From positions 1-38,646 of the IMG/VR virus record IMGVR_UViG_3300027609_000001: a DNA stretch of 38,646 nt; one strand, 5' to 3'. Shown one piece after another: positions 11,119 to 34,709 of this stretch (position 1 is its first letter; every line of letters starts with the position of its first letter). The notes under the pieces are model-generated. The model had not been told where the DNA came from. It made no database searches and saw nothing but the letters and a program-made list of their open reading frames with translations. This DNA comes from a virus. The position numbers were made by a program, and so were the translations under genes.

Positions 11119-11214
11119 TTACGAGGGCGAAGACTAGTGTCGAGGGGTTTAAAAATTGTTGAGGCTCGGGTTCAAATCCGGGCCTTAATTATGTTGTGCT
11201 TGATGCTTCAAAGG

Positions 11215-29105: not shown

Positions 29106-30242
29106 TTATAGTCCGCCAAATGATGATTTACCTGCAACCCAGTACATGACGTCGCCTGCTACTGACCCTGCTGGTCCTGAGATTGCTGCTGTAAGAGAAG
29201 CACCAGTTCCGCCCGTACCAAGGATCATTCCGAGGTAAAGAGTATTAACGGTCGAGTCAGCTAGAATTCCGGTATTCGTATTTGGAATTTGAACTCCGCC
29301 TACCGTTGGAACCTGAGCCCCAAGAGCCGTTAACGAAGTGGCTGTATTCTCGCCGACAGGAGTCATTTCAGGGAATGAGCATGGCGTTTGTGAGTAAAGA
29401 GGCCATAAAAATGCCGTGAAGCTGGTCGTGTTGGTATCTATGGTGAACGTGTAATCGTCAATAACGGTCAATACAGTTGAGTATTGATAGTTATTTTGAG
29501 GCGTTGAGTTCAATTGAGTCATTCCTGAAACAGCAGGGATAAGGAAACGAATCGCTTGTCCCGGCGTCATACCGTGAGCTATTGAAGTTGAGACCTGAGC
29601 ATTGTTCGCTTGGGTAACGTTCGTCACATAGCGCTTGCGAGGATAAAACGACGAATCAACATTAACAATTCGATAGAATCCTGCGCCGCCAACAACTCCG
29701 GGAGGAGTTATCCCGCCAGGATTAAATGTTCCACCAAGCTGATTATTGGCAGTAAGAAGTGTGAAGCTGGTATTCAGCGTGACCGCGCCAACTACCATAT
29801 CGATACCATTAACATCTGTCTGCGCAGTGTTGCTCATGCGCACAACGGTTCCGACTGAGATACCAGCGGTACTCGCGGTGCTTACAACTGGCTGACGAGC
29901 ATTTGTTGTAGCGGTCGTAGCGACTGCAGGGCCAAGAATTGGAGCAGCGTAGCTTCCGGACTGACCCGATGGATCGTAGAGCGTGAATCCGCCGCTTGGA
30001 ATAGTATCGGCACTAAGTGTTTTCACACCGTTAGCGCCATACTCGACCATCGCTGATCCCACCGGCATTCCGCGCTGCCAATAGAAGTTAAGCCCCGTTG
30101 CTGTGGCTGGCGTACCGATATTTCCATATTGAGTGAAGTTCTTCACCCACATGAAGTCAGCATTCGAAGGGATCTGGATGATTTGATTGACAATAGTAGC
30201 TGGCACAACGAATGAGCCTTGGCTTAAAATAGTTCCGTCCAT
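29106..30242 (-). CDS. Virion structural protein immediately downstream of the MCP (possible capsid decoration or cement protein)
   Basis: 378 aa, AAGGAG upstream. Two small-barrel-like inserts (GTVVRMSNTAQTDVNGIDMVVGAVTLNTSFTL and GQAIRFLIPAVSGMTQL...TVIDDYTFTI). Confidence 0.4.
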   Translation of the reverse strand: MDGTILSQGSFVVPATIVNQIIQIPSNADFMWVKNFTQYGNIGTPATATGLNFYWQRGMPVGSAMVEYGANGVKTLSADTIPSGGFTLYDPSGQSGSYAAPILGPAVATTATTNARQPVVSTASTAGISVGTVVRMSNTAQTDVNGIDMVVGAVTLNTSFTLLTANNQLGGTFNPGGITPPGVVGGAGFYRIVNVDSSFYPRKRYVTNVTQANNAQVSTSIAHGMTPGQAIRFLIPAVSGMTQLNSTPQNNYQYSTVLTVIDDYTFTIDTNTTSFTAFLWPLYSQTPCSFPEMTPVGENTATSLTALGAQVPTVGGVQIPNTNTGILADSTVNTLYLGMILGTGGTGASLTAAISGPAGSVAGDVMYWVAGKSSFGGL

Positions 30243-30251
30243 GGTCTCTCC

Positions 30252-30659
30252 TTATGAAGCTAGGGTTGCGCGAAGGTTGATGACCCACTGATCATTAGTG
30301 ATCCGTGGAACCTCTGCGAACTTCCAGCCAACCGACGCATTAAGCGCCAATGGGCCGTCATAGATTGGTGGACGATAGATGAACGATGCGCTATAGCCAT
30401 CTTGATCTATACAGGCATAAGCCTCCATTCCTACGCAAAAGATGTTGTACACATCTGCGCCAAGAGATGAAGCATTAGGACTGATTGAGCCAATTGATGA
30501 AACCAAGAAGCGAAGGTTACCAATTGCGCCCCATTCTGAACGGAGTGCGTTCATAGGAGCAGGATATTGGTTCTTTTGGATGAAGCCGTTAACGTTATCC
30601 AAGTTTCCGATCAATTGGGTGCTGCACAGTGCGAAATAAGCATCTCGAACTGGTGCGGT
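30252..30659 (-). CDS. Major capsid protein (HK97-fold pattern), exon 5 of 5
   Basis: TAPVRDAYFALCSTQLIGNLDNVNGF...EWGAIGNLRFLVSS...ATLAS* is the C-terminal part of an HK97-type MCP. It begins right after the intron's terminal G. Confidence 0.8.
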   Translation of the reverse strand, partial: TAPVRDAYFALCSTQLIGNLDNVNGFIQKNQYPAPMNALRSEWGAIGNLRFLVSSIGSISPNASSLGADVYNIFCVGMEAYACIDQDGYSASFIYRPPIYDGPLALNASVGWKFAEVPRITNDQWVINLRATLAS

Positions 30660-30868
30660 CATTCTGTTACTTTTAGACCCCTCGCGAGGCGGGCTAACCT
30701 CTTCGGATCAGCCTCTGCATGTTTCCATGCAGTTCAGACTATCGCTTAGCCTTTTCGGGCCCCCACTCACTTAGTCGTTCACGGTGGCTTGCGCCTTCCG
30801 CCTTGTCACCGGCTCTTACACTACGGCTTCCAAGTCAATCAGAGTGGGTTTTAATTCAGCTATGCATA
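30660..30868 (-). mobile_element. Group I intron 4 (209 nt, no ORF)
   Basis: P1: exon AAUUCGGU| pairs with intron GCUGAAUU, with U.G at the cleavage site. P3: CCCACUC/GAGUGGG. R element GAACGACUAAG and S element GCGAUAGUCUG (P7). GAAA-capped hairpin UGCAUG-GAAA-CAUGCA. Ends ...AGUAACAGAAUG. Confidence 0.8.
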
Positions 30869-31057
30869 ACCGAATTTATCTTCGCCCTCAATATTGTCCA
30901 TTATAGTATATGCATTATTATTTAGTAATGCACGTACAACTGTGTCCACGTCTGAACGGGTGATTTCCGTTGGGTTATCACCATCTACGCCGCCGGTACA
31001 GTTAATGAACGAAGCGGTACCTGCCAGCATGTCGCGGGTAAGAACATCTTCAGTTTG
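30869..31057 (-). CDS. Major capsid protein, exon 4 of 5
   Basis: 63 codons: QTEDVLTRDMLAGTASFINCTGGVDGDNPTEITRSDVDTVVRALLNNNAYTIMDNIEGEDKFG. Confidence 0.75.
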
Positions 31058-31254
31058 CTAGTTGTTACTCCCTTTCGGGGGATAAGTCGTTTCCGCTTAT
31101 CTCAGAACCTTTCGTCGCTCTGTTCGGACTATCGCATCTCTTTCGAGTTCTCGGGTTTAGTCTCTCAGGCTGCCTTTACGCTTGCCCCTTGTCGCCTTAG
31201 CTTGCGCCTTAGGCTTCCAAGTCGATTACCGAGAATTTATACTCCGCCAATTTA
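31058..31254 (-). mobile_element. Group I intron 3 (197 nt, no ORF)
   Basis: P1: exon ACUCCGU| pairs with GCGGAGU (U.G at the site). P10: UUG with exon CAA. P3: UCUCGG/CCGAGA. R element GAGACUAAA and S element GCGAUAGUCCG. Ends ...AACAACUAG. Confidence 0.75.
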
Positions 31255-31312
31255 ACGGAGTGAAACGCCAAGACGAGCTGCGCACTCATTTAATACCGGA
31301 TCTTGATTCTGA
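31255..31312 (-). CDS. Major capsid protein, exon 3 of 5 (58 nt; the first nt completes a split Leu codon)
   Basis: (L)QNQDPVLNECAARLGVSLR. The boundaries are set by the P1 and P10 pairings of intron 2 and P1 of intron 3. Confidence 0.65.
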
Positions 31313-31458
31313 CTATTTGCAATTAACTGTTACTTTTGCGACTATATAATAATATTATTAGAATATAGCGGGGAAACCTCTTCGGATCTCCCTCTCACAG
31401 TTTCCTGTGAGTACAGACTATCGAATCTCTTATCGCTAAGAGCCAATGGGCTTAGTCG

Positions 31459-31487
31459 TTGCGGCTGCCCAACCATTATGTTATAAT
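31459..31487 (+). promoter_or_regulatory. Sigma70-like promoter for the antisense endonuclease gene
   Basis: TTGCGG (31459-64), a 17-nt spacer, then TATAAT (31482-87) with TGt immediately upstream (extended -10). Followed by AGGAG (31510-14) and GTG 31522. Confidence 0.5.
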
Positions 31488-31521
31488 GAGTACCAGTACA
31501 ATTCAGAATAGGAGATAGTAC

Positions 31522-32070
31522 GTGAATCGATATAAATATGAGCGCAAAGAGTATGCGGTGGCGCAAATTGCTTATCTCGCTGGAATTATCGATGGAGAAG
31601 GCTCTATTTATATCGGAAACTTTAGCTGCAATCCAAGGACCAAGGTCCCGTATTACCAAACTAACATCCAGGTTACTAACACCGATAAGGAATTGATCGA
31701 CTGGCTTTACGCTATCTTCGGAGGCCTGGTGTCGAAGCGAACTGCTCGACAGCATGCCGAAAATTCGCGCAAGCAAGCCTATATATGGACTGCGAGTGGT
31801 GAACGCGTGACGCATCTGTGTGAACTCATTTTGCCGTTCCTTATATGTAAGAAGAGGCAGTGTGAGATTATGATCAGAATGCGCAAGACATTCACTCCCT
31901 CCCATTGCGAAATTGGAAGACAAGGAATCAAGCCGCATAGCGCGGAATTGGTCCTGCTTCGTCAGTCGCTGATGGATGAGATGCGTAGTCTTCATATTAG
32001 AACTCACTCTTATAAGAATAATGGTCGCTTGCCTCGGGTTACCATGCCTCAGTTGCTAGAAGAGGTTTAG
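31522..32070 (+). CDS. LAGLIDADG-family homing endonuclease (single-motif, I-CreI-like size)
   Basis: IAYLAGIIDGEGSIYI is the LAGLIDADG motif. KELIDWLYAIFGG and LCELILPFLICKKRQCEIM match typical family blocks. 182 aa. The gene lies entirely inside intron 2, on the strand opposite to the intron and MCP. Confidence 0.85.
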   Translation: MNRYKYERKEYAVAQIAYLAGIIDGEGSIYIGNFSCNPRTKVPYYQTNIQVTNTDKELIDWLYAIFGGLVSKRTARQHAENSRKQAYIWTASGERVTHLCELILPFLICKKRQCEIMIRMRKTFTPSHCEIGRQGIKPHSAELVLLRQSLMDEMRSLHIRTHSYKNNGRLPRVTMPQLLEEV

Positions 32071-32118
32071 GCTTTCCCAGTAATCACCTTTGGTTTATTG
32101 ACGCCTCAGCAAAACCCA

Positions 32119-32321
32119 AGCGTCACTTGCTCATTAAGCTGAATGTATTGACCGTAAAACGAGATCTTCGCATCGATGTCCACAGCTGTGAGATTGGTCG
32201 CAGGAGGAGTTATTCCCGAGTTTCCAAGAGGCACAATTGCGGTTGGTAGCGGATTGTAGCGACGCATACGGAGGGTGGTCCCACCATTCCGTGGCATCTG
32301 CTTCAACATAGCTGGTATTTT
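32119..32321 (-). CDS. Major capsid protein, exon 2 of 5
   Basis: KIPAMLKQMPRNGGTTLRMRRYNPLPTAIVPLGNSGITPPATNLTAVDIDAKISFYGQYIQLNEQVT(L) carries the HK97-type MCP pattern P.N.G.T..FRRY..L......L.eG.tP....L.......A....YG. Confidence 0.8.
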
Positions 32322-32556
32322 CTATCTGTTACTTTTGTGACCATTCACATTGGATATTAACTCTCATTGAATGGCGGGGAGCTTCTTCGAGACTCCCTCT
32401 CGTTGTCGCCAGCGAGATCAGACTATCACATCCCTAATTTACTCAGGGTCGCATCGTTTAGTCGTTCACGGTCAATGCTATTGCAAAGTTCCGCCTTGTT
32501 GTCCTCGAGGGATTTCCAAGCCAATTAGACGCGATTTTAGATCCACAAAGTCGCTA
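32322..32556 (-). mobile_element. Group I intron 1 (235 nt, no ORF)
   Basis: P1: exon GAUCCAU| pairs with GUGGAUC (U.G at the site). P10: UUU with exon AAA. R element GAACGACUAAA and S element GUGAUAGUCUG. Ends ...AGUAACAGAUAG. Confidence 0.8.
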
Positions 32557-32649
32557 ATGGATCATGTTCGGCACAGGAACTGAGAGCAACTTGTAGGAGA
32601 AGCTCTGTTGCACAGGGGCCGGGAGACTAGATGTAGTCGTAATAGACAT
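32557..32649 (-). CDS. Major capsid protein, exon 1 of 5
   Basis: ATG 32649 with AGGA 7 nt upstream. MSITTTSSLPAPVQQSFSYKLLSVPVPNMIH, then an in-frame stop immediately inside the intron. Confidence 0.7.
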
Positions 32650-32719
32650 AATTTTTTCCTTGAACTGGAAAATAATTACTCCTTGTAAGCCTATGACAAG
32701 CGTGGTCACCTAGTGCGCT

Positions 32720-33541
32720 ATGCCTACAAAGTATGGTGGCGAGCCACTTTTACGCCAAATGAGGGTTGCGAAGACCTCTAAACGCAGTAAAATTGTAGTA
32801 GGAGACCATGGAGAATGTAAAGGAGTTAGGGATATTTGCGTGAAAAGGATTGCAGAAGATTTTAAACCTGGCCAGATATTGGGCAAATGGACTGTTATAA
32901 GATTCGAAAAGAATGGGGTCCACAGGGCTTGGAGATGCAAATGTATATGCGGAGCCGAACATTTAGTTAGAGAAGTTTATTTATGGGATGGAAGATCTAC
33001 AAAATGCAAAGAATGCGCAAAGCGAGATAAGAATTTTCACAGGTTTGACTTTAAATATGAGATAGGACAGAGATTTGGAACATTGGTCATTACTAAAAGG
33101 TTTAAGAGCAACGATGGCCCCAGGTCGAAGAATAAGTTCGAGTTAGTATGTGACTGCGGCGGAACTGTAACAGTTGATACAGCGCGTATAAACGCTGGAA
33201 AAGTAAAAATGTGCTATAAATGCACTCACAAGCTGGTTGGACAACCTCGACATGGTATGCATGAATCATCTACATATTCCACGTGGGAGCAGATGAAGCG
33301 CAGATGTTACGCTATTAATTATCCTCGATACAAAGACTATGGAGGAAGGGGAATAATCGTTTGCGAAAGATGGCATACATTCGACAACTTTTTGGCTGAC
33401 ATGGGAGAGAAGCCTAATGGGCTTCAGATCGATCGAATAGATAATGATGGACCATATTCTCCTGAAAATTGCCGATGGGTTACTCCTCAAGAGAATATGC
33501 AAAATCGCCGCAATAGCCCCAAGAATAAGCTTGTTACATAA
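32720..33541 (+). CDS. Free-standing HNH-type homing endonuclease
   Basis: Two G..(L/F)G.(W/L).V....(zinc-ribbon CxC...CxxC) repeats. C-terminus [62 protein letters not shown] is typical of phage HNH endonucleases. Opposite strand to all neighbouring genes. Confidence 0.8.
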
Positions 33542-33574
33542 GGATAATTATCAGACATAAGTTGTCACATAGCA

Positions 33575-33603
33575 GCGGGTGAAAGCTGGAATTATTCACC
33601 CGC
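33575..33603 (+). terminator. Hairpin downstream of the HNH gene
   Basis: gcgggtgaa (33575-83) pairs with ttcacccgc (33595-603), a 9-bp stem. No clear U-tract. Confidence 0.3.
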
Positions 33604-33782
33604 GCAAACTGCGATTGCTCACAGCGTAACAGTCTATTATTTACAGCTTGATCTGAGCAGAGGGTGACTCGAAACTCTAAGCCACCCCCTGACTGAAAGC
33701 CCTGCTGAGCTTTAGTAGTTACCATCAGAGATAATAACAACTGCCAGAGATACTACTATAATTCTTGCGTCTTGCAAAGAGA

Positions 33783-33810
33783 GATGGGCGGCCATTCACA
33801 ACCGCCCATC
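33783..33810. terminator. GC-rich hairpin between the scaffold gene and the HNH/MCP region (possible bidirectional terminator or attenuator)
   Basis: gatgggcgg (33783-91) pairs with ccgcccatc (33802-10). Followed by ttgggtt on the plus strand and ucucuuug on the minus strand. Confidence 0.45.
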
Positions 33811-33863
33811 TTGGGTTAGGAAGGGATAGGGAACCACATTCCTAGCGACGAGACTACTACAAT

Positions 33864-34709
33864 TTAATACCCTTTGCGAGACTCATTCGTCTCTGCCCAA
33901 AGTTGCTTCTTCATCTCAGGTGTCAATTTGCCGCTTGCGAAAGCATTCATGCGCGAAATAGGAGAATCTGCGGTGTTTTGAGCTGAAACAGTATTAAGTG
34001 GTCGCGGCTTAGCAGAATTCTTCTGGATCTTCTCGGATTCTTCAGAAGTGGTATTCTGTTGTGCACTACTTTGAGAAGAGTCCTTTACAATGCCATTAAA
34101 CTTGATCGACTTGTAGGCTAGTGAGAGGGCTGCTTCTGGATTACTTGCTGCTGCTTGAAGTCCTGCTACTGCGTCAGGGTCCATACTATGGAGCGTCTTG
34201 ATATTTTCAGCGTTTACCACACTATCAAAATCAGGATACTTCTGCTTGAGACGCATTTCGACTTCCATATATTGCCGCTGTTGCGTGAATGCTTCTAGCT
34301 GCTTCTTAAGTTCCTTTTGCTCTTTAAGCACTTGCGCCAGATGTTTTCCCTCAACAAGGTCATCTGGATTAAGGTTGAAGTCATCCTTCTGGGCGACTTT
34401 GCTCTCTAGCTCTCGGTATCTCTTTTCGAAGTCGTCGCGCTCACGTTGCGCCTTCTCGGCTTGCTGACGCAGCTCGCGGAAGTTTTTAGCTTGAGCGCTT
34501 TCCTTTTCGGGCGCTTGTTGCTGCGCAGGTATCTGAGCTGCAGGAGCTGAAACTTCTTCTTGATGCGCTGTATTATGCTGCGCAGCTTCTTGTATAACCT
34601 GTTCAGGATTCTCATGGACTGGCTCCGGTATTACTGGCTCTTCAGGAGGAAGTGGTGGCATCGCAATCTCCTTGCGCGCCAAATCTTTTCCTACATTGAG
34701 TTGGTTCAT
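33864..34709 (-). CDS. Scaffolding protein
   Basis: 281 aa, AAGGAG upstream. Highly charged E/Q/K-rich coiled-coil sequence upstream of the MCP. Confidence 0.5.
   Translation of the reverse strand: MNQLNVGKDLARKEIAMPPLPPEEPVIPEPVHENPEQVIQEAAQHNTAHQEEVSAPAAQIPAQQQAPEKESAQAKNFRELRQQAEKAQRERDDFEKRYRELESKVAQKDDFNLNPDDLVEGKHLAQVLKEQKELKKQLEAFTQQRQYMEVEMRLKQKYPDFDSVVNAENIKTLHSMDPDAVAGLQAAASNPEAALSLAYKSIKFNGIVKDSSQSSAQQNTTSEESEKIQKNSAKPRPLNTVSAQNTADSPISRMNAFASGKLTPEMKKQLWAETNESRKGY

Follow-up and report, generated by a model that had tools for sequence, protein, structure and literature searches.

An antisense LAGLIDADG endonuclease gene with a putative conserved promoter in a group I intron of a phage major capsid gene

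Introduction

In bacteria and phages, the endonuclease genes of mobile group I introns are described as lying in sense orientation, and a 2014 review of group I introns in bacteria nowhere uses the terms antisense, opposite, orientation or promoter. The mobile introns of the T4 genes td, nrdB and nrdD, which encode I-TevI and I-TevII as well as I-TevIII, carry their open reading frame (ORF) in a peripheral loop, under its own middle or late promoter within the intron; its expression is tuned to spare splicing, with regulation by hairpins that sequester the ribosome-binding site and by autorepression (PMC2988022). An antisense arrangement has been reported for I-DirII of Didymium iridis (intron Dir.S956-2) and for introns at position L2066 of ribosomal DNA (rDNA), in which the endonuclease gene is antisense to the ribozyme and has its own promoter, independent of host-gene transcription (PMC3073962, PMC9548176). 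Among phages, the sole precedent found in the literature is mycobacteriophage LittleE, whose major capsid gene contains a group I-like intron of 819 bp with a LAGLIDADG-type ORF on its bottom strand; splicing of this intron has been shown by reverse-transcription PCR and N-terminal sequencing (PMC3706429, Pope et al. 2013).

Here we describe a comparable locus in the virus record IMGVR_UViG_3300027609_000001, of which the whole stretch of 38,646 nucleotides (nt) was analysed and is referred to as the window. Within its major capsid gene, intron 2 (31313-32118, minus strand, 806 nt) holds an endonuclease gene on the opposite strand, in the peripheral loop L6. The locus is most likely a mobile group I intron whose antisense I-CreI-like gene is expressed independently of the capsid gene from a conserved putative promoter of its own. 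The conserved putative promoter within ribozyme helix P6 and a stop-free frame on the intron strand, both of them family-wide, are new here.

The endonuclease gene and its orientation

The gene at 31522-32070 (plus strand) starts with GTG and encodes a protein of 182 amino acids (aa) with a single LAGLIDADG motif, of the I-CreI/I-MsoI type. A sequence-only reading of the window, made before any database search, had placed this ORF in antisense inside intron 2 and had named profile searches as a check of its homology; the coordinates hold, and the protein reaches 24.9 bits against Pfam LAGLIDADG_1 (PF00961, cut-off 23.1). The database contains 273 homologues, with identity down to about 31%. 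The motif reads LAGIIDGEG, and its residues G25, E26 and G27, together with Q46, T47 and K110, are invariant among 32 aligned homologues. When the profile of this alignment was compared with solved structures it matched I-MsoI (2.9e-14) and also I-CreI. An AlphaFold2 (AF2) model of the protein, with a predicted local distance difference test score (pLDDT) of 82.8, gave best PDB matches in Foldseek that were all I-CreI, I-CvuI or I-MsoI (E about 1e-8), and it superposed on I-CreI with a target-normalised TM-score of 0.77; the fold of the model is the alpha-beta-beta-alpha-beta-beta-alpha fold of LAGLIDADG homodimers. Between the window and a homologue of 80% identity, substitutions number 33/26/91 at codon positions 1/2/3, and the endonuclease frame is therefore the frame under protein selection.

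The ORF lies wholly within the intron, yet not wholly in a loop, given that its last 18 codons (32016-32070, residues 165-182) overlap P6a, P4', P5 and P5a on the other strand. This tail accumulates 0.09 substitutions per site versus 0.31 elsewhere, about three times more slowly, as expected if the RNA encoded on the opposite strand constrains it, and some 20 aa of tail are predicted to be disordered in the AF2 model; its conservation probably reflects the RNA and not the protein. The C-terminal tail (…NNGRLPRVTMPQLLEEV) is strongly conserved in the 182-aa subfamily, and shorter homologues of ~167 aa terminate ahead of the ribozyme core.

Loci encoding relatives of the endonuclease were collected and their capsid exons located by tblastn, which yielded 82 distinct loci. 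Capsid exons flank the gene on both sides and on the opposite strand in 72 of them; six more have one opposite-strand capsid flank, the other being missing because the locus is truncated; the capsid gene lies on the same strand in one locus, and three gave no capsid match. Capsid identity across these loci falls to about 30%, and the insertion sites in the capsid protein differ, being at aa 97/98, 99/100 (the window), 104/105, 24/25, 91/92 and 181/182. Orientation, L6 position and promoter position are all conserved in about 80 related phage loci. The antisense layout is the norm in this large environmental phage family and not an oddity. The statement that antisense cases are rare agrees with the literature (PMC3073962, PMC9548176, PMC3706429) but not with this family, where the arrangement is found in 72/82 loci. 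LAGLIDADG relatives in the cultured phages Xylella Bacata, Pelagibacter HTVC103P and Sphingobium Lacusarx were set aside as instances of the layout, their genes being co-oriented with their neighbours.

The split capsid gene and the intron 2 ribozyme

The host gene is recognised from five ORF fragments on the minus strand, from 32649 to 30252, namely exon 1 (32649-32557), exon 2 (32321-32119), exon 3 (31312-31255, between introns 2 and 3), exon 4 (31057-30869) and exon 5 (30659-30252), which when joined form an ORF of 951 nt with a product of 316 aa. Intron-less proteins of 315-316 aa, which some sources label 'N4-gp56 family major capsid protein', match the spliced product at 92% identity along 100% of its length. 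This alignment contains no gap at any of the four junctions, all of which fall within nearly invariant sequence, and the spliced ORF is likewise collinear, free of gaps, with intron-less capsid genes. The host gene is an N4-gp56-type major capsid gene, and intron 2 sits in an essential, highly conserved stretch of it. Gene callers give the capsid as fragments of 136 aa and 56 aa.

The five exons are separated by four related group I introns. Exon 2 and exon 3 flank intron 2, whose boundaries were assigned from splice-site pairs and exon joining: the 5' splice site lies directly after U32119, the partner of G32105 in P1 (GACGCU/GGCGUC), and the terminal nucleotide is G31313. The P1 U.G pair, the terminal G and the gapless joining of the exons bear out the limits of 31313 and 32118 proposed for this intron in the sequence-only reading. 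The frame that enters from exon 2 meets a stop 11 nt into the intron. Intron 1 (32322-32556, 235 nt), intron 3 (31058-31254, 197 nt) and intron 4 (30660-30868, 209 nt), all on the minus strand, are paralogues of intron 2 without an ORF; in each, the U at the end of the 5' exon likewise pairs with a G in P1 and the last nucleotide is G.

The ribozyme of intron 2 was mapped element by element and by covariation, in an alignment of 45 homologous introns, from which the L6 insert had been removed, and the window's three ORF-less introns, 48 sequences in all. Its 5' half (32016-32118) comprises the P1 3' strand (32105-32100), P3 5' (32093-32087), P4 5' (32079-32076), P5 (32072-32070/32043-32041), P5a (32065-32062/32050-32047), P4 3' (32038-32035) and P6a 5' (32025-32018). 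The 3' half (31313-31479) comprises P6a 3' (31479-31472), J6/7 and P7 5' (31464-31451), P3 3' (31449-31443), P8 (31442-31427), P7 3' (31420-31416), P9 (31411-31394), P9.1 (31392-31371), P9.2 (31369-31341), and the tail with the terminal G (31340-31313). The core is complete from P1 to P9.2 without P2. Between the halves lies the L6 insertion (31480-32017), which holds the reversed endonuclease gene and is closed by the P6a stem ACCAUUAU/AUAAUGGU; in the same alignment, introns 1, 3 and 4 have a short P6 hairpin at this position.

Pairs were counted for the structure read from intron 2, with controls in which the 3' partner was slid by 1-3 columns. For the 55 pairs of P3-P9.2 in the 48 sequences, 82% of cells are canonical versus 38-48% in the slid controls, and compensatory cells number 599 versus 128-279. 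Multiple compensatory pair types occur in P3 (up to six per position), P4, P6, P8, P9, P9.1 and the last pair of P7, and in all aligned introns a covarying P6 closes the insert. Every pair in intron 2 of the window is canonical except one in P3. The four introns represent a divergent, compact subtype of group I introns that lacks P2.

Promoter and translation signals

Upstream of the endonuclease gene, on the plus strand, a putative sigma-70-type promoter at 31459-31487 consists of a -35 element TTGCGG (31459-31464), a 17-bp spacer and an extended -10 element TGtTATAAT (31479-31487), and is followed by the Shine-Dalgarno sequence AGGAG (31510-31514) and the GTG start (31522-31524). These signals are present as the sequence-only reading had listed them. 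Its further claim that promoter and -10 overlap the region complementary to the ribozyme core stands for the -35, which is the complement of J6/7, and for the spacer, which covers the P6a 3' strand, but not for the extended -10, which lies in L6. Homologues have AGGA- or GGAG-type motifs 5' of the aligned ATG or GTG start.

By itself the promoter of the window is not above chance. A consensus scan omits it, its -35 matching at 3/6 positions, and the region contains 10 promoter-like sites versus 6.2 +/- 2.8 expected, which is no enrichment; its significance derives from conservation in the homologues and from nothing else. Plus-strand sequences were therefore compared after anchoring on the complement of the P7 5' strand (TTAGTC), with 71 distinct sequences set against shuffles. 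The best sigma-70-like match with a 17-bp spacer is at offset 14 in 41/71 sequences and at offset 7 in 11/71, including the window; the mean promoter score is 9.4 versus 7.6 +/- 1.2 for shuffles, and scores of at least 10 are reached by 32% of sequences versus 2.5% of shuffles. Once anchored, the sequences yield the consensus TGGACA-N17-TATAAT, in which information is highest at -10 positions A2 (84%) and T6 (81%) and low throughout the spacer. Across the family, the -10 lies in L6 and the -35 opposite P6/J6-7, its hexamer being complementary to the P6 3' strand; at the position of this -35 the ORF-less introns have unrelated sequence. In the window, the extended -10 is perfect and sits 7 bp upstream of the consensus position. 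The plus-strand block of the Erf recombinase is preceded by TTGACA-16-TG-TACTAT, so that host-type promoters are plausible in this phage.

Several further observations concern this leader region. The AT-rich P9.2 loop, which varies among homologues, contains the plus-strand promoter-like sites TTAACT-16-TATAAT and TTGCGA-17-TAGAAT (31323-31364), about 170 nt before the endonuclease start. Between the -10 and the Shine-Dalgarno sequence there are short inverted repeats, such as GTACAGTAACTGTAC in locus L014, AGTGTAACACT in L015 and GTACCAGTAC at 31490-31499 of the window, whose sequence varies between loci while the symmetry is kept, and which could be an operator for a dimeric nuclease, a hairpin at the 5' end of the mRNA or an extension of the intron as P6b. 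The octamer TTCAGAAT is common to the 5' untranslated region (UTR) of the endonuclease gene (31502-31509, plus strand) and the start of exon 3 (31312-31305, minus strand), in the homing site; we take the probability of such sharing by chance to be about 0.08, on a rough estimate of our own. The shared octamer recalls I-TevI, whose operator resembles its homing site (PMC2988022). An I-TevI-like autorepression through this motif was considered and dropped, the octamer being absent from the 5' UTRs of L003 and L005, which have the same insertion site.

A stop-free frame on the intron strand

On the intron strand, a frame in codon register with the endonuclease gene is free of stops from 32055 to 31342 (minus strand). 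It includes the listed sense ORF of 221 aa (32007-31342), crosses the L6 insert and continues through P7-P9.2, and its first ATG (31995) lies opposite the invariant His158 codon, to which it is complementary. Over 82 distinct homologues, at ~37% GC, the in-register antisense frame contains 153 stops, versus 825 and 1336 in the other two. The frame is open because the endonuclease genes avoid TTA, CTA and TCA, the codons that would read as stops in it: at most two of these are present in 67/78 intronic ORFs, and together they make up 0.57% of endonuclease codons versus 5.19% in the capsid exons of the same loci, an approximately ten-fold difference. TTA accounts for 4% of leucine codons versus 25% in capsid exons, CTA for 1% versus 12%, and TCA for 2% of serine codons versus 25%. 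Against expectations calculated from the ORFs' own third-position A usage, the observed counts are 20/278 for CTA, 28/157 for TCA and 74/292 for TTA. A third-position T bias was rejected as the cause, because other A-ending codons are only mildly reduced and these three are 4- to 14-fold further down. All three homologues checked outside the antisense capsid-intron context have 7-10 stops in this frame.

The peptide encoded by the frame is not conserved. Its identity is 0.21-0.52 where that of the endonuclease is 0.33-0.78, the fastest-evolving site is the first codon position of the sense frame, the 221-aa ORF has no Pfam match, and just two database proteins match it, both being the same locus read on this strand; a conserved protein was accordingly rejected as the leading reading of the sense ORF. 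It is synonymous codon choice that keeps the sense frame stop-free. The sequence-only reading had described the ORF as lacking a recognisable motif and running into the ribozyme core, which is correct as far as it goes; the frame is nevertheless not featureless but the most unusual part of the locus, because codon choice in the endonuclease gene actively holds it open. Selection for the passage of ribosomes, and not for a product, is the simplest reading, the benefit of such passage being what we infer.

An ATG or GTG is always present in the sense frame, through the complement of the His158 codon, and in one subfamily AAGGA stands 5 nt ahead of the in-frame ATG or GTG, just past the P6 5' strand. 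A frame that stops short of the ribozyme core was looked for and does not occur consistently. In eight loci (L014, L018, L019, L042, L064, L076, L079 and L082) the open frame continues in-frame into the downstream capsid exon, with 427-461 open codons through the ribozyme 3' half.

Homing site and mobility

The predicted homing site consists of the end of exon 2 followed by exon 3, ...GAGCAAGTGACGCT and TCAGAATCAAGATCC..., with the insertion point between the two. The survey for intron-minus alleles that had been proposed with the sequence-only reading has found such alleles in related major capsid genes: L094 and L095 lack intron 2 and encode capsid proteins of 97-98% identity, and L096 has none of the four introns. 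At the insertion point these alleles differ little in sequence from the window's joined exons; L095, for instance, has GAGCAGGTGACGCT followed by TCAGAATCAGGACCC. L095 and L096 provide candidate natural targets for the enzyme. The residues encoded by the site, NEQVTLQNQDPVLNECAARLGVSLRQTED, are invariant at 27/29 positions, with N101 conserved in at least 90% and L93 variable. Palindromic symmetry was also sought in the homing site and proved uninformative, at most 5/11 positions matching.

L095 has a 208-nt intervening sequence (2284-2491) at position 75/76 of its coding sequence, without introns 2-4, and this site is 18 nt upstream of that of intron 1 in the window (93/94). Intron sites are shuffled among near-identical capsid proteins (97% for L095), the DNA being only ~82% identical.

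Phage genome and neighbouring genes

The window covers almost the entire genome of an uncultured phage of ~38.7 kb. Soil metagenomes have repeatedly yielded assemblies of this phage, and the identical endonuclease is encoded on contigs of 38,688 and 38,674 bp. The minus strand holds the majority of the phage genes, including those for the portal, the large terminase and tail proteins. A megablast search of the region against GenBank phages gave no match, and tblastn with the capsid against the same phages returned remote matches only and no cultured relative.

An HNH endonuclease gene (32720-33541, plus strand; PHROG 374, E=6e-61) adjoins the capsid start codon upstream, antisense to the flanking late genes. 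It shares its strand with the LAGLIDADG gene and lies 650 nt downstream of it; no terminator is predicted in the interval, and the two nuclease genes could be co-transcribed. ARAGORN identified no tRNA gene in the window. The sequence GTTGAGGCTCGGGTTCAAATCCGGGCCTTAAT at 11158-11189 (plus strand) resembles a tRNA T-arm and 3' end, and may be an attP-like core beside the Erf recombinase block.

Proposed mechanism and alternative explanations

It is likely, on the evidence assembled above, that nuclease expression from this mobile intron is independent of the capsid gene. Host RNA polymerase would transcribe the endonuclease gene from the putative promoter, apart from capsid transcription and head-on to it, and during co-infection the homodimeric enzyme would cleave the exon 2/exon 3 junction of intron-less capsid alleles, after which double-strand-break repair would copy the intron into the cut allele. 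The reverse orientation would uncouple the nuclease from the strong late capsid promoter and from ribosomes entering the intron, so that little nuclease would be made, probably early; once late capsid transcription set in, collision would shut off the endonuclease promoter. On the preferred reading of the open frame, ribosomes would cross the L6 insert of ~540 nt in the capsid pre-mRNA, and their cover would guard it against Rho-dependent termination, attack by RNases or pairing with the antisense endonuclease mRNA. Tentatively, the sense frame may be a decoy kept open so that ribosomes cover the insert and protect the late capsid mRNA, a proposal to which we give somewhat less than even weight. 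The literature was searched for effects of Rho or of polarity on group I introns, and nothing relevant came up. If true, this would be a previously undescribed way of making antisense cargo tolerable to a bacterial host gene, with an ORF selected for its openness and not for its product.

Several findings weigh against these proposals. With respect to the ribozyme, intron 2 has a single A.A mismatch in P3 and a weak proximal part of P6, and none of the four introns reaches the gathering score of Rfam RF00028 (50 bits). A relaxed search with this model gave four matches, of 25.6, 19.2, 13.7 and 13.0 bits; the 13.7-bit match (31396-31421) is partial and inside intron 2, and the 13.0-bit match (31083-31361) covers mainly intron 3 and just the 3' end of intron 2. 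In the case of intron 2 the model is missed also because the 540-nt insert breaks it, and it follows from the missed score and the splitting of the capsid by gene callers that the capsid genes of this phage group are systematically mis-annotated. With respect to the promoter, whose function is deduced from conservation among related sequences, the consensus position is degenerate in the window (TGCCCA ... AGTACC), the candidate is shifted from it and matches only 3/6 positions of the -35, and the two plus-strand promoter-like sites of the P9.2 loop (31323-31350 and 31336-31364) lie further upstream. The open frame, finally, is lost in five antisense intronic homologues, in the subfamily to which the window belongs the sense ORF has weak ribosome-binding signals, and the frame usually ends inside or beyond P7-P3'-P8, so that its translation would unfold the catalytic core, which fits simple shielding poorly.

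It may be asked whether, as the sequence-only reading suggested, the layout has instead been selected for regulation by antisense RNA, the endonuclease mRNA pairing with the capsid pre-mRNA and tying capsid yield to the endonuclease, either by blocking the folding of the ribozyme or by recruiting RNase III. The two transcription units are head-on, and no intrinsic terminator is predicted in 30000-34000, so that a plus-strand transcript would run across P6-P1 and exon 2 and further still, with complementarity to the ribozyme 5' half. Capsid protein is needed in very large amounts, however, and selection should act against an element that limits its supply; late capsid transcripts would be far more numerous than a weakly expressed endonuclease mRNA; and the open sense frame looks like a means of tolerating or removing antisense RNA, not of using it. 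Such regulation is therefore considered unlikely, and simple uncoupling of nuclease expression from the late capsid promoter is the more probable explanation.

The sense ORF might, on the other hand, be a real second gene for a maturase-like or regulatory protein, with the locus coding on both strands. This would account for a frame free or nearly free of stops in 67/78 homologues at ~37% GC, for the ATG or GTG always present at the His158 complement and for the AAGGA before the start in one subfamily; the first positions of the sense frame are also purine-rich, which arises because the third positions of the endonuclease are pyrimidine-rich. Yet in all divergence classes the peptide shows much lower identity than the endonuclease (e.g., 0.37 versus 0.61), and its fast first codon position, the missing Pfam match, the two same-locus relatives and the passage of the frame across the ribozyme core all make a second gene improbable. 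Nor is it easy to regard the endonuclease gene as a silent or decaying passenger, with TATAAT a chance match and the plus strand unexpressed. Endonuclease genes commonly decay once fixed in the homing cycle, and the window promoter, with 3/6 matches in its -35, does not by itself exceed chance. But the ORF is intact, its catalytic-motif residues are invariant, 273 homologues extend to ~31% identity, substitutions are in excess at third positions, and the Shine-Dalgarno sequence, start codon and promoter hexamers occur at fixed positions, which renders this explanation very hard to credit. Independent expression of an active nuclease from within the intron is accordingly preferred.

Comparison with known systems

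The capsid intron of LittleE is the nearest counterpart of intron 2, in host gene, in size and in the strand of its ORF; its record places gp14, which matches Pfam LAGLIDADG_3, on the opposite strand inside the joined capsid coding sequence. It differs in that the endonuclease is only 25% identical over 110 aa, the capsid family and the host are others, and it is a single case with no reported analysis of a promoter or of codon avoidance (PMC3706429). The in-register frame of LittleE has two stops at 59% GC and is uninformative.

The I-DirII and L2066 genes share the antisense position but belong to eukaryotic nuclear rDNA, with Pol II promoters, spliceosomal introns, polyadenylation and His-Cys box enzymes (PMC3073962, PMC9548176); their host gene is untranslated, and there is therefore no translation-related constraint on the sense strand. 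The T4 introns resemble intron 2 in mobility, in a peripheral-loop ORF and in a promoter within the intron, and differ in having sense ORFs, enzymes of the GIY-YIG or HNH families and T4-specific promoters (PMC2988022). I-CreI and I-MsoI have the single LAGLIDADG motif and the same fold as the protein of the window, with the acidic motif residue and the lysine aligned, whereas they are encoded in sense orientation in chloroplast 23S rDNA introns and are ~20% identical to it; the window protein also ends in ~20 additional aa, predicted to be disordered, whose codons overlap the ribozyme core. Set beside these systems, the phage introns described here allow two adaptations to be read, a putative host-type promoter accommodated in a ribozyme helix and nuclease codons that keep the opposite strand translatable, and they bear on the old question of how selfish introns limit their cost in very highly expressed genes.

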